The notes under the pieces: model-generated
The model's database searches: none
What the model saw: only the letters and a program-made list of their open reading frames with translations
What the model was told of the DNA's origin: nothing
Translations under genes and position numbers: made by a program
NCBI RefSeq assembly: GCF_000142905.1
Contig: NW_013657664.1
Location: forward strand, 338,133 to 402,132
DNA length: 64,000 bases
Reading direction: 5' to 3'
Source: Thecamonas trahens ATCC 50062
Lineage: Eukaryota; Protista; Apusomonadida
In this document: piece by piece, positions 8,283 through 61,862 of the stretch
Layout: the number at the start of each line of letters is the position of its first letter
How positions within the stretch are numbered: the first letter of the stretch is position 1

Positions 8283-11200
8283 TTACAGCGCGTCGAGCGC
8301 GAGGACGAGCGAGCGCAGACGGGTGAGCGACGGCGAGATGGCGGCGATGGCGGCAAGAACGGTCGCCTCGGCGATGGGAGTGTGTGGAGCAGCCTCAATG
8401 ACGACCCGAGCGTCAAGGACCGGTCCAGCAACGAGGTGGTCATGGTGGAGGTTCGGAAGGTAGACGGCAAAGCGAGTCGAGGAGCGAAGCGAGTTGAAGC
8501 GAAGGCACAGTGCCTGCGACGACGACCCCGCCGAGTCTCCGGTGCCGGGCAGCGGCTCGTACGAGATGTCGAAGAGCGCGGCAAGCTGGGCAAGCTGGCG
8601 CGAGAGAAGCATGACTCGACCAAAGTGGAGCTCGAGATCATCGAGAATGGCCCGGACTGCAGGTCCGTCGTATGGCAGCGGCGCGTCCATGTACAGCATG
8701 GCGTCGATGCCGATGGCGTCAAAGAGAGGCGCAACAAAGACGTTGGCCTCCGGCAGCACAGCCGCGCTGGTTCCAGTCAGAAGTGTCCGCCCGGCCGGCG
8801 ACGGCTGGAGCTGGAGGGCCACGCTAAACTCGGATCCAAAGGTGAGTGCGATCGAGGCGTCGGCCTTGAAGGCCTTGAGCGACCAGTCCGAGAGACCACG
8901 GACAATGGCGAGAGTCTCACTCAGCGCCTCGACGGCCTCGTACGAGGTCTCGCACCCTGCAGCCGAGGCTGCGGCTCGGGCCGCGGCACGCTTCAGCGCG
9001 TTGCGCTTCAGCGCAAGGCCACGAAGGCCGTCCTCGGCAAGGCCCTTGGTGGCCTCGAGGTGGGCGACACCGGCCGCTGCCTGCGAGTTGGCGCTTGTGG
9101 CCGCTGCCAACTCGGTCCGGAGCGCAGCAAGCTCCGAGGCTTTGTGGAGGTTGGTCAGGGTGTTGATCTTGGAGTCGTACAGTGAGGCAAGGTCGCGCGA
9201 CGTCTCGCACACGCCTGCGGCACGGGCCAGGATGGCCAGATCGCCCTCCAGTAGCTGCGAGGAGCGCGAGTAGCCGGCAGCGAGCTTGCCGTTGAGCTTG
9301 GCGAGCCAGGCGTACCACTTGACCTTGGCCCGACCCTTGGCCAGAGCCTTGAGATCGACAACCCGGTCGACGAGCGCTGACTCTTCAGCCGAGCCAGGCT
9401 GGGCCAGCGCCAGCGCCTTCATGATTGGCGCGTTGTCGGAGGAGAGCGACGCCGCCAGCGCGTTAGCGCGCTCGTGTAGCGAGGCGGTCAGTTGCTCCAG
9501 CTGAGTGCAGCCAAACGAAAAGATCGAGGTCTCTGGGCCGAGGACAAAGACCGAGAGCAGCTCGAGCGCAATCGGGTCGTCGGTTGGCATCGGCGGCGGT
9601 GGGAGGAGGGTCGGCCGGCGTGTCGAAAACTGGGTAAACAGCTGGACTGAGGTCCGGACTAGGAACTCGTCCATCGAGAGCGTCGGCTCCGGCAGCGGCG
9701 CAACGGTGCCTACCGTCGTTGTCATCTCCATCGACTCATCAGCAACATCCATCGGCACAGGGGCTGCATCAAACGCTGCCTGTGCGACCTCGGAGCCGAC
9801 AGTGGTCGTCATCTCCATGGCGTCGTCGTCGCCAAGCAGATCAAGTGAGTTGTCTGCGGGAGTGGCGTCAAACGCCGCAGCAGTGGCGGCGGCAGACACC
9901 ACGTCGGCGTTGATGGTCGTCGTCATCTCCATTGACTCGTCAGCGTCTGCCTCGGCCTCGACTTCCGCCTCGACCTCCGCCTCGGCCTTCACGTTTCCGA
10001 CGGCGACAGTCATCTCCATGGTGTCGTTGTCGAGCAGATCGAGCGAGTTGTCTGCGGGAGTGGCGTCAAACGCCGCGGCAGTGGCGGCGGCAGACACCAC
10101 GTCGGCGTTGATGTTCGTCGTCATCTCCATTGACTCGTCAGCCTCGACCCCCGCCTCGGCCTTCACGTTTCCGACGGCGACAGTCATCTCCATGGTGTCG
10201 TTGTCGAGCAGATCGAGCGAGTTGTCTGCGGGAGTGGCGTCAAACGCCGCGGCAGTGGCGGCGGCAGACACCACGTCGGCGTTGATGGTCGTCGTCATCT
10301 CCATTGACTCGTCAGCGTCTGCCTCGGCCTCGACTTCCGCCTCGACCTCCGCCTCGGCCTTGACATTTCCGACGGTGACAGTCATCTCCATGGTGTCGTC
10401 GTCAGCGGCATCTAGACCCTGAAGCGAGTCGACATCAAACGCCGCCGCAACAGCATCGGCGCTGACAGTCTCGGTCATCTCCATCGAGTCGTCCTCAGAG
10501 TCGGCACCAGAGGGCGCAGACACCGGTGCGGCGGCAAGAGCCTCCTGCTCAAATGCTTGTGAGAGGTTCTTGGTGGGGACACGAGAGAGTGTAAAGACCT
10601 GCTGACCAGTGCCTGCCTGGCTAAGCATCGAGTCGTCGTCATCATCGTCGACAGCGAGGCTCGCCGACGGTGCAATGTCGAACGCTGGGTTTGGCGCGGC
10701 CTCATCCACCGTCGTTGACAGCCGCTCGTCGGTTGTGAGGGTGAGAAGTGCTGCTGAGGCCACGGCCGACGACGCGACGTAGGCTGGCTTGGACGAAAAA
10801 GTCTCGGTCAGCTCGATCGAATCGTCGTCGACCTCGTCGGAATCAAACGAGAACTCGGCGGCGGCCGGCGTGGCGATCGACTCCTGTGGATCGGCTTGCC
10901 ACAGGTCGTTGAGCGACATGAGAGGGCCCATCGACTCGTTGCCTTCGCTGCTCACCGTCGAGTCAAGCATCGAGTCGAGGTTCGACGACATCGAGGTGTT
11001 GGCCGACGAAGCCAGCGAGGTCGAGAGCGACTCGAGAGCAGAGAACGAGGCCACAGGCGCGTCGCCTAGCGGATGCATGCTCGCGCCGTAGCCGGAAAGG
11101 TCGGCGTCAGAGTCAGACTCTGGTTGCGGCGACATCCATTCCTCGTGCCGCTTCTCGTACTCTCGGACCGAGGCGATGGTCGGCGCAAACGAGACCCGTC

Positions 11201-12109
11201 TGCCGAGCGACCGCCGTGCCTTCTTGCGCGCTCCCGACACAGCGAGGATGCCTGTGGTTGCGCCATCAGCGTTGAGCAGCGGCGCCCGGCCGCCAGGAAG
11301 AATTGATGTCGTGTCATCGTCAGAGTCAAACGTGGCCGGTGCGACCTCGTCAAACGCCGCGTTGGCCGTCGTCAGCGTCTCGACGGCAGCCACGAGCTCG
11401 GTTGCTGGTTGCGGCTGCCGTGCATTGCCTTCAACCGGCACCATCTCTTCGATCAACGGCTGTGGCTCCTGCTGTGGCTGCTGCGGCTGCTCCTGCTGCG
11501 GCTGCATCGGGGTCTGCGCGCCAAACGTGCCGATGGAGCGACGGCCAGGGCGCCTCCGCGCCTCCTGGCCTTGAAGCAGCGAAGAGGCGTGCGAGCGGAA
11601 GGCACCGAGCGAGCGGCGACCCGGACGGATTCCAGCGAGAGCAGCCGCTACCGGCGGGTCGCTCGCCTCGAGCAGGCTTGCACCGAGAGGACGGAAGGCG
11701 CCAAGCGAGCGCCGTCCGACCGACTTGGCCCGCGGCTTGGCGGCCGCCTCCTTATCTGACGGATCCTGATTGAGCGACGCAGCACCGCGAGGGAGCAGAG
11801 CCCGCTTCTTGGACGCGCGTGTCGGCTGAGCATGTACATGGGCCGGCGTGTGGGCGTGTGTTCGGTCGTCGGGGAAGTGGTATGACGGTGGTGAGTCGGT
11901 GGCTTTGGCGCCAAAAAGGGGGGAACAGTTTGAACATTTGCCAACACAGAGGGGGGAGACACAGGCCACATGCCCGCCATTCTTGCCCCGCATGGGCATG
12001 CACGTACCGTCACAGGGGCAAAAGAGTTCTCCTTGTCCATGCTGAGCTCGCGCTTCATGCCGGTAATCCCACCGCCTGGTGACGCCGGAGCGTTCTCGGT
12101 GAGGGACAT
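8283..12109 (-). CDS. KNL1: kinetochore scaffold KNL1/Spc105/Spc7
   Basis: Exon 1 12109-12008 (MSLTEN...MDKENSFAPVT), GTACGT...CAG intron 12007-11826, exon 2 11825-8283 in frame. SILP/GILA then RRVSFA PP1-docking motifs, about 10 MELT-like (MEMT/IELT) repeats, C-terminal coiled coil and RWD-like region. Confidence 0.9.
9830..10400 (-). repeat. intragenic tandem repeat (units of about 174-198 nt) encoding KNL1 MELT modules
   Basis: gtcatctccattgactcgtcagc recurs at 9922, 10120 and 10294 with near-identical intervening sequence. Confidence 0.92.
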
Positions 12110-12270
12110 GTCGCCGAACTGCGGGGAGAGGTGGCATTCGGCTGGCGGGCGAAGGGCCGAGTGGGGAGGGGGAGGGGGGGAGTGACACAGAGTCAAACGG
12201 GTGGCGTGGCGGGGGCTGTTGCCATTACGTCTCTTCATAGTCTGATTACAAGGTAGGTAGGATCCACAGT

Positions 12271-18325: not shown

Positions 18326-18441
18326 NNNNNNNNNNNNNNNNNNNNNNNNNNNNNNNNNNNNNNNNNNNNNNNNNNNNNNNNNNNNNNNNNNNNNNNNNNN
18401 NNNNNNNNNNNNNNNNNNNNNNNNNNNNNNNNNNNNNNNNN
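18326..18441. other. assembly gap
   Basis: N run between poly-C tracts. Confidence 0.99.
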
Positions 18442-18513
18442 CAAAATCCCCCCCCCCCCCTCCCACCTGCGCACTCACTCCATTTGCCCCGATGTGTGGT
18501 TCGGGTCACATAG

Positions 18514-21510
18514 GCTGCAAGCCAAGTCGGCTCCAAGCTGGCGGTGTACGAAGGCCTGCTAGACGTACTGCTAGATGACGAGATGCAGCTTGTGGAGGCG
18601 ATTGTGTCGCAGATGGACATTTGCGACGCCGACAAGCTGGCCAAGATCTTTGTGCACTGCTTCGAGTCGCGGGACATGACGCTCCAGCTGCTGGAGCGGT
18701 CTGTGACGCGGGAGATCGAAAAGACCGAGTACGCACAGGTTTTGTTCCGCGGCAACTCGCTGGCGTCCAAGATGATGACGGTGTACTCGCGGCTTGTGGG
18801 AACGCAGTACCTGCGGTCGACGCTGTGGCCGGTGATGTCTGCCGTTGTGGAGAGCGAAACGTCATTCGAGGTGGACCCTAACCGTGCGCGTGATGGCGAA
18901 GACCTGACAGACAACTTGGGCAAGGTGCGGCATCATGTGGAGGCATTTCTTGCGGCGATTTTGGACTCGATCGACTCGTGCCCGACGCCTCTGCGCAAGC
19001 TGTGTGCGGCGTTGATGGCGAGCGTGGATACCAAGTTCCCGGAATCACACTTTAAGGTTGTGGGCGGGTACTTTTTCCTCCGCTACCTCTGCCCGGCGGT
19101 TGTGTCGCCGCCGGCGTACTCGCTGATGGACTCGTTCCCCAAGAAGACAGCGCATCGTGGGCTGGTGCTCATTGCCAAGTCGCTACAGAACCTGGCGAAT
19201 AACGTGCCGTTCTCTGCCAACAAGGAGCGGTACTTGCTGGACATGAACGACTTTATCGAGGCCAACGTGGAGCGGCTCAACGAGTTTTTTGAGGCGCTGG
19301 CGACGGTCGACGACGAGGTCGAGCTCCCTCCGCCGGCGGACATTGACGCGGCCAAGGCGCTGCAGGTCCGTGTTGATCTGCAGCGGTACCTCTCGGCTAA
19401 CTACGACAACATTGTGGCTGCGCTGGAGAGTGGATGCGGGGCTGATGCGGCCGTGGTGGCTCAGTTTGCCGATGTGATGCAGACGCTGCAGCAGACGGTG
19501 GCAGCGGAGCAGAGCAAGGCGGCCAAGGCCAAGGGCGAGTCTGCGACGGAGCTTGACGGCGGTGGTGGCGACGACGAGGGCGGGAGCAGTGGCAACGACG
19601 GCCTTGTTCTCAACATGGAGCTGGAGTGGACAGAGAAGCCGCGCGATGCGGTGGCAATCACGCGCGACCTACTGTCGCGGCTGAAGAACATGGCCGAGTC
19701 TGCAGTCAATGATCTGGTGCTCTCGTCGCAGTCTCAGATGACGCTGGCGATGCTTGGGTCGGCGTCGGACACGTCGATGGACACGCCTGCGGCAATGATC
19801 GACATGCTCGGTGCGATTCCGTCGGCATCGCCGGGGCGGCTGGCAGACATGCGCGACCCGTACGAGTGGTCCAAGATTGCCAACTCGATCGACTTTTCCG
19901 AGTTTATGGTCGACACGGCCGAGCTGCAAAAGGTTGACCTTGCTGCGCTCGGCAGCCGGGCGGCGACGATTGCGTTCTGGATCAACGTCTACAACATGCT
20001 CGTTCTGCACACGCGGCTGTTGGTGGGCAAGATGCCGACGTCTGTCTTTGCGCGCAAATCGTTCTTCTCCAACTACAAGTACAACCTGGGCGGCCACCTG
20101 TTCTCGCTCGATGACATCTACCACGGCGTGCTCCGCGGCAACCCGCGGTTCCAGATCAAGCGGCGTGACGAGCGGGTCGAGTACGTCATCTCGGCGTACG
20201 ACCCGAGGGTTCACTTTGGCGTCTCGCAGCTCAACGCGTCGTCGCCGGTCATCCGCATCATGACGGCCGAGACCGTCTTCCGCAAGCTCCTCTGGGCAGC
20301 CATCACATACTGCAATCGTGAGGTCTCGGTCTCGGCCGAGAAGCGCGGTGTGACGCTTCCCAAGCTCTTCTCACTCTACGCCACCGACTTTGGCCCGTTC
20401 AAGACCGACGTTTGGTCGGTGCTCGGCCTCTGGCTCAACGAGGACGTCAAAGACGTGCTCTCGTCGTTCCTCAAGACCGGCAAGTACAAGATCTCGTACA
20501 AGGACATGGACTACGGGCCCAAAGTGCCCGTCTTCGAGACAGACTCGGGCGCCGAGGCCTTTGCGGTCTTCTCGGCGCGGAAGGACGCCGAGAAGGCCGC
20601 GTCCGAGTCGGCGGCGCCCGGATCGTCAGCGCCGGCTGCCGCCAAAGCCATCGAGGTTACCGCGTCGACCGACGACGGCTCCGACGAAATCGAGTCGGTG
20701 GTGGTGGACCTCGACGAGCTTTTTGTGGTCAATGTGGAGGAGGAGTGGAACGATGAGGTCCGGCCGGCCGTCGCCGTCTCCATTGACCTCGTCACTCACC
20801 TCGGGCGCCTAGTCAAGACCTTTATGTACGGGTGGACGTCGGTGGCCGGCTCGCGCCAGTTCCGCGACTTTGTCCTTGTCGCTGGCGAGCTGCAGAAGGT
20901 CTCGCTGGCGCCGCTCTCGGCTAACGAGCGCAAGTGCTTCTTTATCAACATCTACAACACGCTTGTCACCCACCTGTACATCATGTGCGGGCCGCCGACC
21001 TCAATCTTCTCGCGCAAGTCGTTCTTCAAGAAGTTCAAGTACAACATCGGCGGCTACTCGTACACGCTCAACGACATCTACCACGGCATTCTCCGCTGCA
21101 ACCGCAAGAAGATGTTCAAAAAGTCAGACCCGCGCCTCGCATATTCGATCCCACCCGGCGACTTTGATCCCCGCATCCACTTTGCCTGCTCTAACCTCAC
21201 CGAGTCGGCCGGCCCCGTCCGCGTCTACCACCCGGCTACCATCGACGTCGAGCTTGACGCCCAAGTCGCCGCCTCTATCAAGCGCGTCATCGAAATCAAG
21301 CCGGCTAAGAACAAGATCTACCTGCCCAAGATCATCGACATGAATCTTTCCGACTTTGTCAAGAAGAAGGACATGGTCTACGATTTCTTCAAGTCCTATC
21401 TCGACGCCGACGATCAGGCCGCCATCGAGGCCTTTCCCAACACCTCCAAGAAGCTGCGCGTCTGGTACCGCGACTGGCAGTGGGCGCCCGACCCGCAGTT
21501 TCTGTGCTGA
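18514..21510 (+). CDS. RasGAP-domain protein with two C-terminal DUF547 domains (first exon uncertain)
   Basis: LFRGNSLASK, GGYFFLRYLCPAVVSP, LIAKSLQNLAN (RasGAP); twice FWIN.YN.L / SLDDIYHG.LR / DPR.HF (DUF547). In-frame TAG at 18511-13 implies a splice acceptor with an upstream exon near or in the gap. Confidence 0.88.
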   Translation, partial: AASQVGSKLAVYEGLLDVLLDDEMQLVEAIVSQMDICDADKLAKIFVHCFESRDMTLQLLERSVTREIEKTEYAQVLFRGNSLASKMMTVYSRLVGTQYLRSTLWPVMSAVVESETSFEVDPNRARDGEDLTDNLGKVRHHVEAFLAAILDSIDSCPTPLRKLCAALMASVDTKFPESHFKVVGGYFFLRYLCPAVVSPPAYSLMDSFPKKTAHRGLVLIAKSLQNLANNVPFSANKERYLLDMNDFIEANVERLNEFFEALATVDDEVELPPPADIDAAKALQVRVDLQRYLSANYDNIVAALESGCGADAAVVAQFADVMQTLQQTVAAEQSKAAKAKGESATELDGGGGDDEGGSSGNDGLVLNMELEWTEKPRDAVAITRDLLSRLKNMAESAVNDLVLSSQSQMTLAMLGSASDTSMDTPAAMIDMLGAIPSASPGRLADMRDPYEWSKIANSIDFSEFMVDTAELQKVDLAALGSRAATIAFWINVYNMLVLHTRLLVGKMPTSVFARKSFFSNYKYNLGGHLFSLDDIYHGVLRGNPRFQIKRRDERVEYVISAYDPRVHFGVSQLNASSPVIRIMTAETVFRKLLWAAITYCNREVSVSAEKRGVTLPKLFSLYATDFGPFKTDVWSVLGLWLNEDVKDVLSSFLKTGKYKISYKDMDYGPKVPVFETDSGAEAFAVFSARKDAEKAASESAAPGSSAPAAAKAIEVTASTDDGSDEIESVVVDLDELFVVNVEEEWNDEVRPAVAVSIDLVTHLGRLVKTFMYGWTSVAGSRQFRDFVLVAGELQKVSLAPLSANERKCFFINIYNTLVTHLYIMCGPPTSIFSRKSFFKKFKYNIGGYSYTLNDIYHGILRCNRKKMFKKSDPRLAYSIPPGDFDPRIHFACSNLTESAGPVRVYHPATIDVELDAQVAASIKRVIEIKPAKNKIYLPKIIDMNLSDFVKKKDMVYDFFKSYLDADDQAAIEAFPNTSKKLRVWYRDWQWAPDPQFLC

Positions 21511-47317: not shown

Positions 47318-47361
47318 AGCAAGGGTGATGGTGGTGGGGTGGGGGGGGGGGGGGGGCTGGA

Positions 47362-47605
47362 NNNNNNNNNNNNNNNNNNNNNNNNNNNNNNNNNNNNNNN
47401 NNNNNNNNNNNNNNNNNNNNNNNNNNNNNNNNNNNNNNNNNNNNNNNNNNNNNNNNNNNNNNNNNNNNNNNNNNNNNNNNNNNNNNNNNNNNNNNNNNNN
47501 NNNNNNNNNNNNNNNNNNNNNNNNNNNNNNNNNNNNNNNNNNNNNNNNNNNNNNNNNNNNNNNNNNNNNNNNNNNNNNNNNNNNNNNNNNNNNNNNNNNN
47601 NNNNN
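47362..47605. other. assembly gap
   Basis: N run next to poly-G. Confidence 0.99.
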
Positions 47606-53042: not shown

Positions 53043-56000
53043 TTACTCATTGTACACCACCATGTCTGCGATGTGGAAGTGGTCCGACCACAGCGCCCGG
53101 AGCACATCCACGAGGTGCCGCATGTCGCGCTCGCCGCCGCCCTGCAGTCGCCACGACACATCGCCGCTCGACTCGTCGACGGCACCGGGCACAGCCTCCT
53201 CCACGAGGAACGAGAGGTCCAGTCGCGTCGGCGCAGAAGCGTACACGTCGGCCTCGAGCAAATCCTTGATCTCGATCGCCTGGTAGAGCGCAAACTGCTG
53301 TCCGGGCTTGGCCTTGTCGGCCTTGGCGAGAACCTTGTCGAACGCCGGAAGCGGGTGGACCGTGAACGCCTCGTTCAGCAGTACCAGCCAGGTGTTGGTC
53401 AGCACGAGCGTGGCGTGGAACGGTGCCTTGATCTTGCTGGACTTGTCAACGTCTCGTGGTGGGAGGACAACCACAGAGAGCACCTTGCGCAGGTCAAGCT
53501 GGACCTCGGACATGATGCCGGTAAAGATGGTGGTGGCAAGCGCGGCCCGGACATCCGGGGCGTTTTGAACCAGAGGCACATGCCGCGCCACCTTGTGCAG
53601 CGTCGCGCTCAGCTGCCGCGTCGCCTCGGCGCAGCCGGTGATGATCGCGTACGAGGTCTCCGGTGATAGCTCCAGACGGAGACTCTGTCCAAACGCGCCG
53701 ACTCGGACGGCGGCGAGGCTCGCAATGTCGATCTTGTCGAGCTCGACAAGACCGTCGATGAGGTCAGCGTCGCCCTGGGTGAGCGACTCGGTGAACGGTG
53801 ACGATTTGGACCACGACTTGTGGCCGAGAAGGAGGACCGAGGCTGTTGTGACAATCACGCCAGCCCAGCGCGTCACGTTGCCCGATGCGCTGAGGCTCCA
53901 CTTGGCGAGTCGGCCCGGTGCAAAGGCGAGAATGTTCTCAGTCTCGACGTCGATGATGTGCAGCTGGACGTGGAGCTTGAGCGCTGACTGGAGTGTCACG
54001 TCCCAGCCGAGATCAAGATAGCCGGCGTCGGCGCGGGCCTCGGCCTCGGACCGCATGCCCTCGTCATAGTCAACCGGTGTCACCGGTTTTGGTGGCGGTG
54101 CCTCGTCAGTGTGCACAACTGCGGCGTCGCTGGACGCTGAGCCGACACGCGGCGATGCTGCGTGGCCTGCTGCAGACGATGATGCCGCAAAAGAGTGGGC
54201 CGATGCCTCGGATGCCACCGACGAGGCCATGCCCGAGCTCGCTCCGGCGCCTGCAGTAGCACCCGGGATGGCCAGTGGCGCCGTCGCCTCAGCTACCGCT
54301 GGCTGTGCCTCCTCAAATGCCTCGACAATAAAGTCGGAGCCGCAGGTCGGGCACATGTCGCGAAGCATAGCCTTGGTCGTGTCGGCATACGTCGCCGAGC
54401 ACTTCAGACACTTGACGGTAGCGTGGAGAACAGCGAGCTCTGGGTTGGCCAACGAGTTGAGGAGGTCGACAAGCTCACCAACGACGTCGGCCTCAACCGC
54501 ATACTCGACTGTCGACGCCACGCCGCGGTCCCTGCGGAACTCGAGCTGGACTCGCGAGCCCGAACGTGCCGAGAAGGTTGAGGCTCGGTAGAGGTGCTCG
54601 AGGTTGTGGGTGGCGACGACTTCGGCGTCGGTCACGTCCATTTCCGAGATCTTGCCGCGGGTAACAATGAGAATGAGGGTCTTGGCCGCTGAGCCGGTGG
54701 TCTCCACCAGAAACTCGCCTTGAGTCGAGCCGTCGTCGGATGACGCATCCGCCTCCGACGACTCGGCACCGGCGTCTGGCGCGGTGGCAAGCCCATCGTC
54801 ACCAGCGATCGATTCTGCCGAGCGCATAGAGCTGGCAGTCGAGGGATGCGAAGTCGGCGGCGTCCCGTCGCGCGGCAGCAGTGTCGGCGAGCGGGGTGAG
54901 ATGGCTGGTGAGCGCGGTGAAGCCTCGGAGGAGCGACCGCCAGGCGGTGGCAGCGGCAGGGCGTCAAAGGCGGCATCGTTTGGTGCCGGCAAGTGTGACC
55001 CGCTCGTTCGCGACGTGCTTGACTTGGTCTCATCCGACGGAGCAGGAGTGGCCAGCTTCGCCTGTGCGTCTTGCATCAAGGCCGAGAGCGAGGTCGATCC
55101 CGAGCGGCGCGACCGGGTCCGGGAGCGCGAGCGCGAGCGTGACACCGACGGCGACGGCGACGAGTGGCCCGAGTTTGCCGAACATTCCTTGCGCTTACGC
55201 CTCTTGCGCTTCTTTCGCCGGCTCCTGCCGCTAGTAACGAAAAAGCCGTCCTTGGAACGCGCTTCCGACCGCGACTTGCGCTTGGCCACAACCAGCTGTG
55301 GCGAGCTGAGCCCGTCGGGCCGCGTCGGCGACGAGGACGCGACCGTGGCATAGGGATCGGCAACAAGCCGCGGCGAAGTGTGGGAAGCGGCCAACCGCTG
55401 CTCGCGGCGATCACGTTCGAGCTGGGTGAGAACCACCAGCCAGTTGTCTCCGTAGCGAGCCTTGATGTCCTCGACCTGGCGCTTGAACTCCTGCGTCGAC
55501 TCTTTGAGCTCGGTCGAGCTCGACAGTGGCACCGGGAGCGGAGCAGTAGCAGTTGGCGCGGCAAGAAGAGCGGGAGTAGCAACAGACGGCCCCGAATAGC
55601 CTTGCGGGGGCGAGGAGGCCACGCGCGGGCGCGGCGCCGGAACATCGCGAATAGCGGCAACGCGGGCGCGCGGAGACGACGATATCAGAGCTGGGGCTGG
55701 TGAGCCCGAGGCGGCGCGACGGTGAACCTCACGTGATGCTGAGACAACCCGTGAAACAGCTGCGGCGTCCGAGGACGACAGCGGGGCGCCGTCGAGCGTC
55801 CGCAGCGACTCGGAGCCTGCAAGCTCAAACTCGGCAAAGGTGGCGACACGAAAGTCAGTCCGCGCTGCCACAGGGTTGCCGGCCAACCACAGCGCTTCAA
55901 GGCATGGCAGAGCGGCCAGCCGCGAGACCTCGTCGAGGGAGACAACCAGGTTGAGGGCAAGGTCGAGCGACTCGAGCGCGTAGAGCTTGCCGAGGCCGGC

Positions 56001-56927
56001 CAGTGAGCGGATTGAGTTGGAGCGAAGCGAGAGCGACCGCAGATTGCCGACTTGAGTGTGGACGTTGGCAAATGAGGTGATGGCGTTGTAGCCAAGGTCA
56101 GCAGTGTGGAGGTAGATGCACTCCTCGAGGTGCTCGATGGCGGTCAGCTTGTTGTGGCTGAGAACGAGGACTTCCAAGTAGGGAACGGCCAGTAGCGCCC
56201 GCTGGTCAATCCGCTCGAGCCCAGCGTGGGTTATGGTAAGCTCGCGGAGGCGTGGCCAGACGACCTCGCGAACCTTGCGGATCGGCGAGCCGATCTGCGC
56301 CGATGGTGAAGGTGGATCCGAAAAGGCCTCGCCGTCACCGTTTCCAGCGCCATGCTCGGCCGCCGTGGGCGACGGCAGCGGCGAAGCAAAGACCTCAACG
56401 CCATGCAACGGCAAGTCGACAAGCAGCTGGTCAAGCGCAAAGCGTGAATGGACCGGGAAGGGCAGGGCAGGACCCTGATCTGGATCCGAGCGACCGCCCG
56501 AGCGCGGAGCAGCGACGACGAGGGTCAGCGCGCGAAGCTGGACAAAGACTTCGTTGAGGTCAGCAAGCTGGCGTGGGAGCACGTTGTCGGCATGCAGTCG
56601 CTCGAGCGAGTGGAACATGCCCATGGCAACTGGGTGGTCTGCGGCGATGTGTGCAGCATGCGGCGGAGGATGCCGCGGACCAGCGACATGAAGCGAGGGC
56701 AACTTGCGAACAAAACGGTCGATGACCATCATGGCATCAGCATCCCCATACTCCCTGCATGACTCTGCACCATGTTCGTGGAACATGTACAGCCGTCCGT
56801 TGAGATAGGCCAGGCACGCCGGGTTGACGGTAAAGGGCGCCGCTCCACCGACGACCTCCTCACCATGCTCGGCCACAAACCGCTTGAGCGAGGAGATGAA
56901 CACATGCCCGTTGACCTCACCAGACAT
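53043..56927 (-). CDS. STK11IP: LRR protein, STK11IP/nischarin-like
   Basis: LRR array (LSHNKL, LGYNAI, LRSNSI, LALNLV, LAGNPV), CLKC..CPTCGS zinc ribbon, C-terminal PH-like regions. Confidence 0.75.
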   Translation of the reverse strand: MSGEVNGHVFISSLKRFVAEHGEEVVGGAAPFTVNPACLAYLNGRLYMFHEHGAESCREYGDADAMMVIDRFVRKLPSLHVAGPRHPPPHAAHIAADHPVAMGMFHSLERLHADNVLPRQLADLNEVFVQLRALTLVVAAPRSGGRSDPDQGPALPFPVHSRFALDQLLVDLPLHGVEVFASPLPSPTAAEHGAGNGDGEAFSDPPSPSAQIGSPIRKVREVVWPRLRELTITHAGLERIDQRALLAVPYLEVLVLSHNKLTAIEHLEECIYLHTADLGYNAITSFANVHTQVGNLRSLSLRSNSIRSLAGLGKLYALESLDLALNLVVSLDEVSRLAALPCLEALWLAGNPVAARTDFRVATFAEFELAGSESLRTLDGAPLSSSDAAAVSRVVSASREVHRRAASGSPAPALISSSPRARVAAIRDVPAPRPRVASSPPQGYSGPSVATPALLAAPTATAPLPVPLSSSTELKESTQEFKRQVEDIKARYGDNWLVVLTQLERDRREQRLAASHTSPRLVADPYATVASSSPTRPDGLSSPQLVVAKRKSRSEARSKDGFFVTSGRSRRKKRKRRKRKECSANSGHSSPSPSVSRSRSRSRTRSRRSGSTSLSALMQDAQAKLATPAPSDETKSSTSRTSGSHLPAPNDAAFDALPLPPPGGRSSEASPRSPAISPRSPTLLPRDGTPPTSHPSTASSMRSAESIAGDDGLATAPDAGAESSEADASSDDGSTQGEFLVETTGSAAKTLILIVTRGKISEMDVTDAEVVATHNLEHLYRASTFSARSGSRVQLEFRRDRGVASTVEYAVEADVVGELVDLLNSLANPELAVLHATVKCLKCSATYADTTKAMLRDMCPTCGSDFIVEAFEEAQPAVAEATAPLAIPGATAGAGASSGMASSVASEASAHSFAASSSAAGHAASPRVGSASSDAAVVHTDEAPPPKPVTPVDYDEGMRSEAEARADAGYLDLGWDVTLQSALKLHVQLHIIDVETENILAFAPGRLAKWSLSASGNVTRWAGVIVTTASVLLLGHKSWSKSSPFTESLTQGDADLIDGLVELDKIDIASLAAVRVGAFGQSLRLELSPETSYAIITGCAEATRQLSATLHKVARHVPLVQNAPDVRAALATTIFTGIMSEVQLDLRKVLSVVVLPPRDVDKSSKIKAPFHATLVLTNTWLVLLNEAFTVHPLPAFDKVLAKADKAKPGQQFALYQAIEIKDLLEADVYASAPTRLDLSFLVEEAVPGAVDESSGDVSWRLQGGGERDMRHLVDVLRALWSDHFHIADMVVYNE

Positions 56928-57205
56928 GATACACAGCTGGCTGCGGTGGGGGGGGGGGGGGGGCTGGTTGGCTGGGAAGTGCCCCTGGGAAGGGCCGGGG
57001 TTGGTCCAAGTGGGGTGGTGCCGTCGTGCCCATGTCGTGGTGGCAAGAGTTGTGCGAGCGGAGCATGGCGACGGTCCGACCTGGTCTCTGCGCTCCGGGG
57101 AAGGGAGAGGGACGGGGCGGCAGGCTGGGCAGGCCACCTGACTGCCGAGCAGACAGGCTGGCGTTGGTAGCCGCAGACAGGCTGTGGCGAGAGACTCTGG
57201 TGCTG

Positions 57206-58552
57206 ATGGCCACACGGCGGGTCACGCGCTCGGCGAGGAAGCGAAGGCGCAAGGACGAGGACGAGGACGGGGACGCGACGGCATCCGCTCCGTCTGCGGC
57301 ATCCAGCTGCAAGCGCGCAAAGACGGGCCAGGGCGATCGGGTGCAGTCTCCGCCCATGCAGCGGGTGCTCACCGCCGACGATGTGGCGTGGTGGCGGCTG
57401 TGGCGATCGGGGCTGGTGGCCGGCATGCCGGGACTCGACAGCGATGCGGAGGCTGGGACGGTGGCCGAGGCGGTGGCGGGTGTACACGTGGCGGTGCAGG
57501 CGCAGATCCCGTTGGCGTGCAGCCTGGCGGTGTGGAACCGGATGGTGAGGCCGGCGGTAGATGCGGTGCCGGCGGCCAAGGTAGCGATGGCTGCGCTGCG
57601 GGAGACGATGCGAGGCGAGGGCGTGGTGCGGACGTGGGGTCCACGATGGACGCTGCATGCCATGACGGTCCGCGACCTGGCTCTGTATCTGGCAGCGCGT
57701 GGGAGTGGCCACATCGAGTACCTGTATCGCCGGGCTGGTTCGAAGAACGGGACGCCTCGAGCCGAGATTGACCATGCCATCGACGCGACAGCATCGAGAT
57801 TGGCGAGTCATGGGAGCATGAGCAAGGATGAGTATGCCGAGATGGGCCTGCCGATGGCTGTCCGATATTGGGTGTTTGGCGCTCTCACGTTTAGTGGCCA
57901 GGCAGTGAGGGACGATGTGGGCGACTCGAGCACGCCTGTGCTGCGGCCGATGCCAGCTGCCTTTGCGGCGTATTCCTTCGAGCCCGAGGCCGCATGGCGC
58001 GAGCTCCTCTTACGTTACTTTGACGTCTACGGGCCAGCAAGTGAGACCGATGTGCGCTACTGGCTCGGCGCCAAGCGCGGCGAGACAGCACCGCGGGTGT
58101 CGGCCCTGGTGGCATCGGGCGAGCTGACATCCGTAAGTGTCACGTCGCGCGAGGACGAGGAGGTGTTCATCCGCACCAGCGTGCTCGAGGAGCTCGATGC
58201 GCTCCCGCCGCGTGCTGGTGCCGGGGACACGATGGTCGTTCGGCTGCTCGGCCGGTTCGAGCCGGTCCTCATCGCGGTCAAGGACAAGAGTGCGTGGATC
58301 GCTCCTGAGCACTACCGCAAGGTCTGGGCGCACACCAATGTGGCGTCTGTGGTGCTTGTCAACACGCGGCTCGTAGGACGGTGGAAGGTGGTGCGTCGGG
58401 CCAAGATGCTGACAATAGTGATCACTGCGTTTGACGCCAAGTGCATGTGCTCGATCGAACAGGCGTGGGACGAGGTGCTGGTGCAGGCTGGGGGGCTGGC
58501 GAGCGTGTACGGGTTCGCAGACCGCGCGTCATGGGCTGTCCAACTCGAGTGA
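57206..58552 (+). CDS. alkZ: AlkZ-family (HTH_42, winged-helix) DNA glycosylase, copy 1
   Basis: VQAQ (QxQ), VRTWGPRWTLHAM, RYFDVYGPAS..D..YWLG, VRLLGRFEP.L, VLVNTRLVGRWK; N-terminal RKRRRK. Confidence 0.85.
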   Translation: MATRRVTRSARKRRRKDEDEDGDATASAPSAASSCKRAKTGQGDRVQSPPMQRVLTADDVAWWRLWRSGLVAGMPGLDSDAEAGTVAEAVAGVHVAVQAQIPLACSLAVWNRMVRPAVDAVPAAKVAMAALRETMRGEGVVRTWGPRWTLHAMTVRDLALYLAARGSGHIEYLYRRAGSKNGTPRAEIDHAIDATASRLASHGSMSKDEYAEMGLPMAVRYWVFGALTFSGQAVRDDVGDSSTPVLRPMPAAFAAYSFEPEAAWRELLLRYFDVYGPASETDVRYWLGAKRGETAPRVSALVASGELTSVSVTSREDEEVFIRTSVLEELDALPPRAGAGDTMVVRLLGRFEPVLIAVKDKSAWIAPEHYRKVWAHTNVASVVLVNTRLVGRWKVVRRAKMLTIVITAFDAKCMCSIEQAWDEVLVQAGGLASVYGFADRASWAVQLE

Positions 58553-58880
58553 GATGCGCTCTAGCGCAGCTTCTGCGGCGTCTCCCTCCGGCGTGTTGCC
58601 GGTGAGAGCTCGATGGTAAAGCAAGTGGTACAACTGCCATAGTCGATCCATTAATGCGATCCTAATCTCAGGCTGGTCAGGAGAGTCCGTCGGTATCCGC
58701 ACTCACGAGCCTACGCTATCAGGAGAGCCGAGCAAGTCGGGTCAGATGCCAGCCGCGTGCAGGCGAGCAGAGGAGGGGGCAAGGATACAACACTGCCACC
58801 GGGTGCGTCCACCTGACTGCCGAGCAGACAGGCTGGCGTTGGTAGCCGCAGACAGGCTGTGGCGAGAGACTCTGGTGCTG

Positions 58881-60239
58881 ATGGCCACACGGCGGGTCAC
58901 GCGCTCGGCGAGGAAGCGAAGGCGCAAGGACGAGGACGAGGACGGGGACGCGACGGCATCCGCTCCGTCTGCGGCATCCAGCTGCAAGCGCGCAAAGACG
59001 GGCCAGGGCGATCGGGTGCAGTCTCCGCCCATGCAGCGGGTGCTCACCGCCGACGATGTGGCGTGGTGGCGGCTGTGGCGATCGGGGCTGGTGGCCGGCA
59101 TGCCGGGACTCGACAGCGATGCGGAGGCTGGGACGGTGGCCGAGGCGGTGGCGGGTGTACACGTGGCGGTGCAGGCGCAGATCCCGTTGGCGTGCAGCCT
59201 GGCGGTGTGGAACCGGATGGTGAGGCCGGCGGTAGATGCGGTGCCGGCGGCCAAGGTAGCGATGGCTGCGCTGCGGGAGACGATGCGAGGCGAGGGCGTG
59301 GTGCGGACGTGGGGTCCACGATGGACGCTGCATGCCATGACGGTCCGCGACCTGGCTCTGTATCTGGCAGCGCGTGGGAGCGGCCACATCGAGTATCTCT
59401 TTCACCGCGCCGCTACTCGGAAGGACATCAAACGGATTGCGACGCAAGCCGAAATGGAGCGGATGGTAGAGGCGACTGCAGCCCGGCTGTCATCCCAAGG
59501 TAGCGTGAGCAAGGATGAGTTTGCTACCATGAGCTTGCCGTCGACAGCACAGCACGGTGTGTTCGGAGTCATCGCCTACCGCGGCCAGGCGGTGCGGGAC
59601 GATGTGGGCGACTCGAGCACGCCTGTGCTGCGGCCGATGCCAGCTGCCTTTGCGGCGTATTCCTTCGAGCCCGAGGCCGCATGGCGCGAGCTCCTCTTAC
59701 GTTACTTTGACGTCTACGGGCCAGCAAGTGAGACCGATGTGCGCTACTGGCTCGGCGCCAAGCGCGGCGAGACAGCACCGCGGGTGTCGGCCCTGGTGGC
59801 ATCGGGCGAGCTGACATCCGTAAGTGTCACGTCGCGCGAGGACGAGGAGGTGTTCATCCGCACCAGCGTGCTCGAGGAGCTCGATGCGCTCCCGCCGCGT
59901 GCTGGTGCCGGGGACACGATGGTCGTTCGGCTGCTCGGCCGGTTCGAGCCGGTCCTCATCGCGGTCAAGGACAAGAGTGCGTGGATCGCTCCTGAGCACT
60001 ACCGCAAGGTCTGGGCGCACACCAATGTGGCGTCTGTGGTGCTTGTCAACACGCGGCTCGTAGGACGGTGGAAGGTGGTGCGTCGGGCCAAGATGCTGAC
60101 AATAGTGATCACTGCGTTTGACGCCAAGTGCATGTGCTCGATCGAACAGGCGTGGGACGAGGTGCTGGTGCAGGCTGGGGGGCTGGCGAGCGTGTACGGG
60201 TTCGCAGACCGCGCGTCATGGGCTGTCCAACTCGAGTGA
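58881..60239 (+). CDS. alkZ: AlkZ-family (HTH_42, winged-helix) DNA glycosylase, copy 2
   Basis: Same motifs as copy 1; identical except the central segment at about 59396-59595. Confidence 0.85.
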   Translation: MATRRVTRSARKRRRKDEDEDGDATASAPSAASSCKRAKTGQGDRVQSPPMQRVLTADDVAWWRLWRSGLVAGMPGLDSDAEAGTVAEAVAGVHVAVQAQIPLACSLAVWNRMVRPAVDAVPAAKVAMAALRETMRGEGVVRTWGPRWTLHAMTVRDLALYLAARGSGHIEYLFHRAATRKDIKRIATQAEMERMVEATAARLSSQGSVSKDEFATMSLPSTAQHGVFGVIAYRGQAVRDDVGDSSTPVLRPMPAAFAAYSFEPEAAWRELLLRYFDVYGPASETDVRYWLGAKRGETAPRVSALVASGELTSVSVTSREDEEVFIRTSVLEELDALPPRAGAGDTMVVRLLGRFEPVLIAVKDKSAWIAPEHYRKVWAHTNVASVVLVNTRLVGRWKVVRRAKMLTIVITAFDAKCMCSIEQAWDEVLVQAGGLASVYGFADRASWAVQLE

Positions 60240-60247
60240 GATGCGTT

Positions 60248-61862
60248 TTACATGCCTGGCAGCTTGCCGCCCTTCATCATGTTGCCGAACGACTTCATCA
60301 TGGACTGCAGGCCGGAGCGGCCACCCATCTGCTGGATCATGCGCGGGTCGAGGACCTTGGAAAGGTCAGGCCCGTTGCGCGAGTTCATGTTGAGGCCCTT
60401 CATCTTCTTGAAGACCTTTGCGAAGCGCTTGAACTCGTCGAGCAGCGACGAAACAATGTTGACCGAGGTGCCGGAGCCGCGGGCGACACGGGCAATGCGC
60501 GACGGGTTAAACTTGACGTCGCAATCGAGCTCCTCATTGGTCATCGAGTCCATGATGGAGAGGAACATGTTGATGCGGCGGGCCGACTCTTCGTCCGAGC
60601 CCGAGTTGAGCATGGACGACGACATGCCAGGCATCATGGACATGACCGACGAGATGGGGCCCATCTGCAACAGGTTCTGGAACTGGTCAGCCATGTCGCG
60701 GAGGGTGAACACGCCCTGTTTGAGCTTTTCCAGCAGCTCGGGCTGCTGGTCAATGCCGGCGTCCTGGAGCTTGGAGACGAGACCCATGATGTCGCCGCGG
60801 CCGAGGAGGCGCGAGACAAACGACGAGGCGTCGAACGGCTCGAGCTGGTCGATGTGCTCGCCCATGCCGATGAAGACAATGGGCGAGTGAGTGGCCGCGA
60901 CGGCCGAGAGCGCGCCACCACCCTTTGCGGAACCGTCCATCTTGGTGATGATGACCGAGCCGACGTCGACTCGCTCGCGGAAGGCCTCGGCCTGGTCCTG
61001 CGCAGCCTGACCGATGGCGGCATCCATGACAAAGATGGTGGTGTCGGGCTCGACAGCCTCGGCAACCTCGGCCATCTCCTCAAACAGCGCCTCTTCCTGC
61101 TTGTGGCGGCCCGAGGTGTCGACAATGATGATCTCAAAGCCCTCCTCGCGGAACTTGTCCACGCCGTCGGCGGCGACCACCACGGGCGAGGTCTCGGTGT
61201 ACGAGCCGTAGTACGGGATGCGGGCCTTGGTGGCGTTCTGCTTCAGCTGATCAAAGGCACCAGCACGGAAGGTATCCGCACACACAAGACCGACCTTCCA
61301 CCCCTTCCGCTGGTAGTAGTACCCGAGCTTTCCCGCCGTCGTCGTCTTGCCATTCCCCTGCAGTCCCACAAGCATGATGACGTTCGTCTGGCCCTTGACC
61401 GGCACGTACGGCTTGTGCCCGGGGTCCACCAGGTTGATGAGCTCCTGGAAGACAGCCTGTGGATTGGAAGCGGGAGGGAGGGGTGCGGTGAGGCGGGGGG
61501 GGAGGGGGGGAGAGCATGGAAGGCGACACGGGAGGTGGGCGAGGGGGGGGGGGGGGGGGAGGGGGGGAAGAAGGAGGGCATGGGGGGGAGGAAGAGGAAG
61601 AGAGAGGGGCAGGGAAGGGGACAGGGCGTACAGTCTGGATGAGCTTGCGCTTGTTGATGCCCTGGGCCATCTCCTCCATGTTCACCTGCTGGGTAATGGC
61701 CTTGCGTAGGTTGAGGACAAGCGGGACCGAGACGTCGGCGGCAATGAGGGCGTTGCCGATCTCCTTCAGCATATCGTTGAGCACTTTGTCGTCCACAAGC
61801 ATGGCGTTGGACATATTGCGCAGCGCATCGGAAATACGCGACCCAAGCGCTCCAAGCACCAT
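60248..61862 (-). CDS. SRP54: signal recognition particle 54 kDa protein
   Basis: Exon 1 61862-61632 (MVLGALG..), intron 61631-61457, exon 2 with [27 protein letters not shown], Met-rich M domain. Confidence 0.97.

Follow-up and report, generated by a model that had tools for sequence, protein, structure and literature searches.

A divergence island over the middle winged helix lies between identical arms of tandem AlkZ-like genes in Thecamonas trahens

Introduction

We describe here two tandem genes for AlkZ-like DNA glycosylases in Thecamonas trahens ATCC 50062, located in a 64,000-nucleotide stretch of contig NW_013657664.1 (positions 338,133 to 402,132, forward strand; called the window below, with all coordinates counted from its first base). 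In the closest described systems, (Q/H)-Phi-Q is the motif of AZL proteins, Q-Phi-D that of YQL proteins and H-Phi-(S/T)-(D/E) that of AZL2 proteins (PMC9040887; this and the other papers cited by PMC number are drawn on for part of their text). Helix alphaI has been proposed as a contact to the drug in the major groove and varies among enzymes (PMC7367128, PMC8934636), and its role in AZLs is left to be determined in a 2026 structure paper, which places the sensor tryptophan of AlkX at the N-terminal end of alphaF (PMC13303869). For duplicates undergoing gene conversion, a local peak of divergence is described as the signature of a selected difference between the copies (PMC2588116).

The two T. 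trahens copies share identical arms on both sides of one deeply diverged island, which covers part of alphaF and the following helices up to alphaI. With a probability of roughly 55%, we read them as old tandem AlkZ-like duplicates under concerted evolution, in which selection retains two predicted recognition modules.

Results

Two Identical Arms Surround a Diverged Island

Public sequencing runs matching the window were searched (24 listed), and the contigs, not the raw reads, of eight of them were examined. Five of the eight belong to organism A (two samples, low depth), while X5, X7 and X8 are wild samples. The parts of the pair are as follows.

57206..58552, forward strand: AlkZ-like glycosylase copy 1, 448 aa, with a lysine/arginine (K/R)-rich N-terminus; start codon inferred
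58881..60239, forward strand: AlkZ-like glycosylase copy 2, 452 aa, from the ATG at 58881
57134..57705, forward strand: left arm of copy 1, comprising 72 nt 5' of the ATG and the first winged helix (WH1) with the catalytic motif
58809..59380, forward strand: left arm of copy 2, the same as 57134-57705, supported by contigs of X1 and X6
57909..58558, forward strand: right arm of copy 1, comprising the wing of the second winged helix (WH2), the third winged helix (WH3), the C-terminal beta region, the stop codon and 6 nt
59596..60245, forward strand: right arm of copy 2, ending 2 nt short of the convergent SRP54 stop codon
57497..57505 in copy 1 and 59172-59180 in copy 2, forward strand: QAQ (Q-Phi-Q) catalytic motif, as defined in PMC9040887
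57706 (T) versus 59381 (C), forward strand: lone synonymous difference between the paralogues, at the left edge, where contigs of X1, X2 and X5 branch
57721..57908, forward strand: cassette 1, comprising the second half of alphaF, a short loop, alphaG, alphaH and alphaI
59396..59595, forward strand: cassette 2, with the same helices as cassette 1 and a loop 4 residues longer
57854..57898 in copy 1 and 59541-59585 in copy 2, forward strand: alphaI-equivalent helix of WH2, the most divergent part (4/15 residues identical)
58559..58808, no strand: spacer between the copies, unique, 250 bp, bridged by contigs of X1 and X6

Direct comparison revealed no difference between the left arms (572 bp) or between the right arms (650 bp), exactly at the limits drawn in an initial annotation made from the sequence alone. 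That annotation had also noticed no synonymous differences in the arms, which holds; a lone one lies at 57706/59381, just outside the left arm and 15 bp before the dense island (57721-57908 versus 59396-59595). Its view of the central block as diverged yet homologous is confirmed by the alignment of the two cassettes (30/67 residues identical, one 4-residue gap, E 8e-21), and its cassette translations and the 4-aa difference between the proteins (448 versus 452 aa) were correct. The N-terminus of copy 1 has a pattern that we take to resemble a nuclear localisation signal. Within the 72 shared bases 5' of the ATG there is a 12-nt direct repeat (57149-57160 and 57173-57184, 24 nt apart), also present in copy 2, which is possibly a promoter element retained in both copies.

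The Tandem Pair Is Genuine

All eight junctions expected of the pair were present in the contigs of the examined runs taken together (upstream to left arm, left arm to cassette 1, cassette 1 to right arm, right arm to spacer, spacer to left arm, left arm to cassette 2, cassette 2 to right arm, and right arm to SRP54). Single contigs of X1 (58371-59380) and X6 (58308-59853) pass from the right arm through the spacer into the left arm, a path that cannot arise from two alleles of one locus, and contig ends or starts fall exactly on the arm limits (57134, 57705/59380 and 59596). In the estuary run X5, the contig depth, a rough measure, was 11 and 10.3 for the arm-bearing contigs; the expected values are 10.8 and 9.8 for two copies, 6.0 for one, and 15.5 and 13.6 for three. 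The five organism A runs showed 0 differences from the window, and marine or estuary metagenomes from other studies contain both cassettes. Since no single record spans the whole pair, the cassette order is not phased in the strict sense. The tandem pair is confirmed as real and is not a misassembly, a possibility that the initial annotation had raised together with read depth as a check.

The Island Is Old and Has Evolved Under Constraint

Synonymous and nonsynonymous divergence was estimated by the Nei-Gojobori method over 14 gap placements and one version without the ambiguous loop. The island (about 190 bp) had a proportion of synonymous differences (pS) of 0.68-0.73, a synonymous divergence (dS) of 1.8-2.6 and a nonsynonymous divergence (dN) of 0.33-0.44, while the arms had 0 differences in 1222 bp, so the divergence is confined to the island. 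Because synonymous divergence is near saturation, the cassettes must have separated long ago, and judging from a dN/dS of about 0.15-0.2 they diverged under net purifying selection. The spacer and the region upstream of copy 1 are not detectably homologous (score 36 versus 32.7 +/- 9.6 for shuffled sequences, p 0.36), and on sequence grounds this is what is expected of an old duplication. No donor or further copy of the cassettes or the spacer was found within the window. Neither cassette is measurably nearer to the outgroups (548 versus 527 matches; 63 versus 49 sequences, with 22 ties), and therefore the ancestral cassette cannot be named.

GC content at third codon positions (GC3) was 0.65 and 0.69 in the cassettes versus 0.79-0.82 (Fisher p 0.002). 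This difference fits GC-biased conversion of the arms or amino-acid composition alike and is not used as support. A 15-nt run in alphaH (57819-57833) is the same in both cassettes; a test on the identical residues was not significant (p 0.12), and the run may be an old short internal conversion tract.

The Island Covers the Helices of the Middle Winged Helix

AlphaFold2 models of both copies were built on 136-row alignments and had a mean predicted local distance difference test (pLDDT) score of 93 each. The cassette is helical, and its helices have pLDDT of at least 90 in both models except for one loop block at 70 in copy 2, so that it is not the disordered linker considered earlier. Both models contain the AlkZ fold, with three winged helices and a C-terminal beta domain. 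In the comparison with AlkZ that had been proposed from the sequence, the best structural match was indeed AlkZ 5UUJ (Foldseek E 5e-20, template modelling score 0.71; VIA Z 35.0, root mean square deviation 3.0, 352 aligned), with DNA-bound AlkX 9ZD6 behind it (E 2.5e-10, Z 28.9). AlkZ was not recovered in a single-sequence search of the PDB; the A1 profile matched 5UUJ with E 1.5e-83.

In the alignment of this profile to 5UUJ, the island corresponds to the second half of alphaF, alphaG, alphaH and alphaI, up to the WH2 wing (helix labels follow Fig. S6 of PMC8934636, whose machine-read text is partly garbled). The earlier placement of the variable block on the middle winged helix is therefore borne out by the profile alignment and the models, with the preceding alphaF helix to be added. 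The identical arms contain the QAQ motif as well as the C-terminal beta region. Identity differs among the elements of the island: it is 4/10 in alphaF, 8/17 in alphaG, 10/14 in alphaH and 4/15 in alphaI (alphaI versus alphaH, Fisher p 0.027). Within the island, alphaF and alphaI are the parts proposed to sense the lesion, and this position supports a role of the island in recognition without establishing one.

Wild Samples Indicate Conversion of the Arms

In the arms, seven substitutions and one 3-nt insertion separate the X5 allele from the window, whereas the window's own copies have 0 differences there (95% upper bound 0.25%). The chance of observing 0 differences between the copies is about 0.0003 if eight are expected and 0.02 if four are expected. 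The insertion (57273/58948) is found in X5 and X7 and adds one residue in the proteins P0001 and P0005. Variant 57613/59288 occurs in X5, X7 and X8, variant 58042/59729 in X5 and X7, and variant 58233/59920 in X5, X7, X8 and P0001 but not in P0005. Several variants sit at matching positions in contigs anchored in unique sequence of either copy. These variants were taken from contigs, in which the arms collapse and bubbles are removed. That variants of wild strains occur at matching positions points to gene conversion still acting on the arms, and together with 0/1222 bp between the copies against eight differences to the X5 allele this bears out the earlier proposal that gene conversion homogenises the arms. 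The right edge of the island is polymorphic, since position 59595 holds the copy-1 base in X5 and X7 but not in X8 or the window.

Only Two Stable Cassette Types Were Found

Only two cassette types were found among three hits (near-length proteins), cluster members and the eight examined runs, and no third cassette was found in shorter proteins (0 of 283 candidates); the rest of the genome was outside this search. Among the loose contig ends listed for the eight runs, none lies at a cassette edge. The protein encoded by cassette 2 is unchanged in X5, X7, X8, P0001 and P0005, and in X5, the one wild run for which a contig covering cassette 1 was listed, that cassette shows a single synonymous change. 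The cassettes had been called hypervariable and swapped. Neither term is supported: only two types were found, each nearly monomorphic across samples, with near-saturated synonymous divergence and dN/dS of about 0.15-0.2. As judged from these sequences, the cassette pair is an old, stable dimorphism rather than a diversifying cassette.

A first scan of metagenome loci found no relatives among 107 stretches. A second scan gave 32 loci, none with two AlkZ-like genes in the sequence available for them, many of them being short and the one inspected looking bacterial. Long degenerate tandem repeats were seen upstream of AlkZ-like genes in three metagenome loci (L005 1-2196, L006 1-2498 and L023 1508-3572). 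The six RNA runs listed carried only 0.05-0.09 of the query words; X6 and X9 are of uncertain kind and cover the spacer, and therefore give no indication of transcription.

Family Membership and Eukaryotic Relatives

Membership of the AlkZ family, already proposed from the translations, is confirmed by matches to PF06224 (HTH_42) at 110.4 and 111.5 bits (curated cut-off 25.9) as well as by the structural match to 5UUJ. Both copies carry QAQ, which is of AZL type and matches neither YQL nor AZL2, and Q48 and Q50 of this motif are nearly invariant among 136 homologues. A natural-product biosynthetic cluster, which is typical of AZL but not universal, was not found in the seven adjacent open reading frames (ORFs) scanned. 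In a quick tree of 56 rows, built without reference AZL, YQL or AZL2 rows, the two copies are sisters, and P0006 (38% identity) is next, with a Shimodaira-Hasegawa-like approximate likelihood ratio test (SH-aLRT) support of 99. P0006, the nearest homologue, is identical to the cassettes at 15/60 and 15/64 residues.

Named relatives among the 21 hits examined are from four chytrid fungi, a red alga, an amoebozoan and a phytomyxid. These eukaryotic AlkZ-like proteins are P0012, P0014, P0016, P0017, P0021, P0023 and P0030, and several have K/R-rich N-termini. Among the sequences checked, a K/R-rich start was seen in 5 of 8 of the eukaryotic type versus 0 of 4 bacterial ones; bacterial relatives include Chloroflexota. 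Among the papers listed in literature searches we found no functional study of a eukaryotic AlkZ, a point on which subscription papers and supplements could bear, and PF06224 in macroalgal genomes appears merely as a label in the portion of PMC13676742 drawn on. Eukaryotic AlkZ-like proteins apparently form an uncharacterised group. In one further protein, P0005 (ENA, 547 aa), an unrelated acidic N-terminal extension of about 110 residues precedes the copy-2 enzyme, and the two meet at the acidic run close to residue 17; this could reflect either a misjoining of metagenome sequences across a short repeat or a fused gene at a different locus.

Neighbouring Genes and Other Features of the Window

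Two genes adjoin the pair.

60248..61862, reverse strand: SRP54 gene with a 175-nt GT-AG intron, bounding the right arm
53043..56927, reverse strand: LRR protein gene, head-to-head with copy 1

The seven adjacent ORFs scanned encode LRR, SRP54, WD40, acidic ribosomal, DUF3522, kinase and RasGAP proteins. The locus is eukaryotic nuclear because the adjacent SRP54 gene has the GT-AG intron. Elsewhere in the window, a RasGAP gene with two DUF547 stretches contains an internal repeat (19920-20143 and 20886-21103, 70% identical), and tandem internal repeats of 81-95% identity occupy 9715-10403 in a long minus-strand ORF (8283-12224). The Nischarin-like gene has a GC3 of 0.74. A long inverted repeat (18326-18478 and 47325-47477) was rejected as an artefact, since it overlaps N runs of the assembly.

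Discussion

Selection on the Island or Blocked Conversion

According to the preferred reading, an old duplication would have given rise to the two tandem AlkZ-like DNA glycosylase genes, and conversion would since have acted in both arms, halting at SRP54 on the right and still nibbling at the island edge, as the copy-1 base at 59595 in two wild samples may reflect. Selection would preserve two versions of the segment that is predicted to contact damaged DNA. Both enzymes would be imported into the nucleus and use the same Q-Phi-Q site on N7-alkylguanine adducts or crosslinks (excision, unhooking), while alphaF and alphaI would decide which bulky major-groove adduct or DNA context each one accepts. 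Selection would purge variants in which one island had overwritten the other or the DNA between the arms had been lost. The substrates might be bacterial or environmental alkylating natural products, which is a guess.

Several observations weigh against selection on the island. The island is among the least conserved stretches of the family (mean column identity 0.20 versus 0.32-0.34; rank 21 of 282 windows), so that conversion would fail first there even without selection, and its dN/dS below 1 gives no direct sign of positive selection. WH2 of DNA-bound AlkX does not touch the lesion and is dispensable for unhooking, and modelling does not put alphaI of AlkZ close to an azinomycin crosslink (PMC13303869). 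Mapped by sequence only, the position of the AlkX sensor probably lies just inside the shared arm here. The wild variants derive from collapsed contigs of different samples, and there is no sister-species orthologue to date the duplication, the nearest homologue being 38% identical. Finally, in a two-copy toy simulation at high conversion rates, an island flanked by long arms emerged in 10/20 and 8/20 neutral runs that included an early 12-nt indel, and in 18/20 and 17/20 runs with two protected sites. Under the 'span' rule this pattern was never produced, with or without selection, and at lower conversion rates the copies were always decoupled, which is uninformative.

The leading alternative, possible but in our view doubtful, is that the island is a neutral remnant. 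The duplicates would have been retained for dosage or by inertia and would do the same job, an early 12-nt indel and fast divergence in the segment under least constraint would have blocked conversion, and chimeric WH2 domains would be all that selection might act against. The poor conservation of the segment across the family, the dN/dS of about 0.15-0.2, the two-armed islands in 8-10/20 indel runs at high conversion rates and the dispensability of WH2 in AlkX all speak for it. The two explanations are better separated by the shape of the island. The observed indel lies near its left edge, with about 150 nt of island to the right, whereas simulated neutral islands were shorter (medians 103-159 nt) and extended equally to both sides of the indel. 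In a comparison of 640 runs per condition, with counts taken over clean-arm runs, the observed shape appeared in 1/287 neutral runs versus 218/288 runs in which a site in alphaI was protected. The result favours a second barrier at alphaI, but by a moderate margin only: the simulation parameters were arbitrary and the position of the protected site was picked with the data already in view, which counts against the selective explanation. Identical arms of 570-650 bp should also permit replacement of the whole island or its deletion, as in yeast MAT switching or single-strand annealing, yet X5 has both cassettes, and X7 or X8 show the spacer and cassette 2; long retention is thus easier to explain with selection.

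A recent capture is less probable still. One cassette would then stem from a related species or an ancient balanced allele and have been set in tandem by unequal crossover or integration of a circle, and the arms would be identical through that recent recombination instead of long concerted evolution. Deep divergence with sharp edges would be accounted for in this way, and contigs leave the order unphased and fit an integrated circle as well as a tandem. However, the two-cassette structure with its spacer recurs in samples from several studies, variants that are specific to a strain yet sit at matching positions require that conversion went on after the strains had separated, neither flank is homologous to the 250-bp spacer, and no donor was found, the nearest homologue P0006 matching only 15/60 and 15/64 cassette residues. 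An active cassette system, which would diversify specificity by exchanging the module between fixed arms for others of a repertoire, is highly improbable: the geometry does resemble a heterologous core between homology arms, but only two types occur among the proteins searched and the eight examined runs, and both copies are full ORFs rather than silent donors. That two alleles were set in tandem, or slightly differing arms collapsed into a consensus, is scarcely credible even in a draft window with N runs, without a record across the whole pair and with contigs that may conceal bubbles, since X1 and X6 join right arm, spacer and left arm within single contigs, the five low-depth organism A runs are free of differences and depth matches two copies.

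Implications and Comparison With Known Systems

Beyond concerted evolution with two retained modules, the pair can be read, only tentatively, as a two-specificity eukaryotic AlkZ, with one converted scaffold and two selected alphaF-alphaI modules for different bulky adducts of microbial genotoxins. If true, this would be the first functional eukaryotic AlkZ-type glycosylase, in a clade spanning chytrids, a red alga, an amoebozoan and a phytomyxid, and alphaF-alphaI alone would set AZL specificity. Known homologues differ everywhere at once, whereas the present pair differs only in alphaF-I, and would so provide a natural isogenic test of AZL specificity. The mechanism, gene conversion with a protected island, is already known; the divergence island between fully homogenised duplicates is unusually clean, and the pair draws attention to eukaryotic AlkZ-like proteins.

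Yeast MAT switching and antigenic-variation cassettes likewise have a heterologous core between identical arms. Unlike them, the present locus has two intact genes, and no silent donors, dedicated nuclease or switching were seen. AlkZ of Streptomyces sahachiroi (5UUJ) and the AZL proteins HedH4, TxnU2/U4 and LldU1/U5 resemble the pair in fold and in the Q-Phi-Q motif, and AZL genes are often multicopy (PMC9040887) and variable in alphaI (PMC8934636, PMC7367128). The pair differs from them in being encoded by eukaryotic nuclear genes, with a K/R-rich N-terminus, 22-24% identity and LRR, SRP54 and WD40 neighbours, and in that its paralogues diverge in alphaF-I only. YcaQ/AlkX (YQL, 9ZD6) is like the pair in overall fold, and alphaF is the proposed sensor of AlkX; however, YQL proteins have Q-Phi-D and are conserved and mostly single copy (PMC9040887), while the present proteins have QAQ and are closer to 5UUJ. 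In the model of Teshima and Innan and the Drosophila transporter genes CG18281/CG17637 (PMC2588116), a narrow, highly diverged window likewise lies between converted flanks. Unlike in CG18281/CG17637, the arms of the T. trahens pair are fully identical, and the peak between them is near synonymous saturation.

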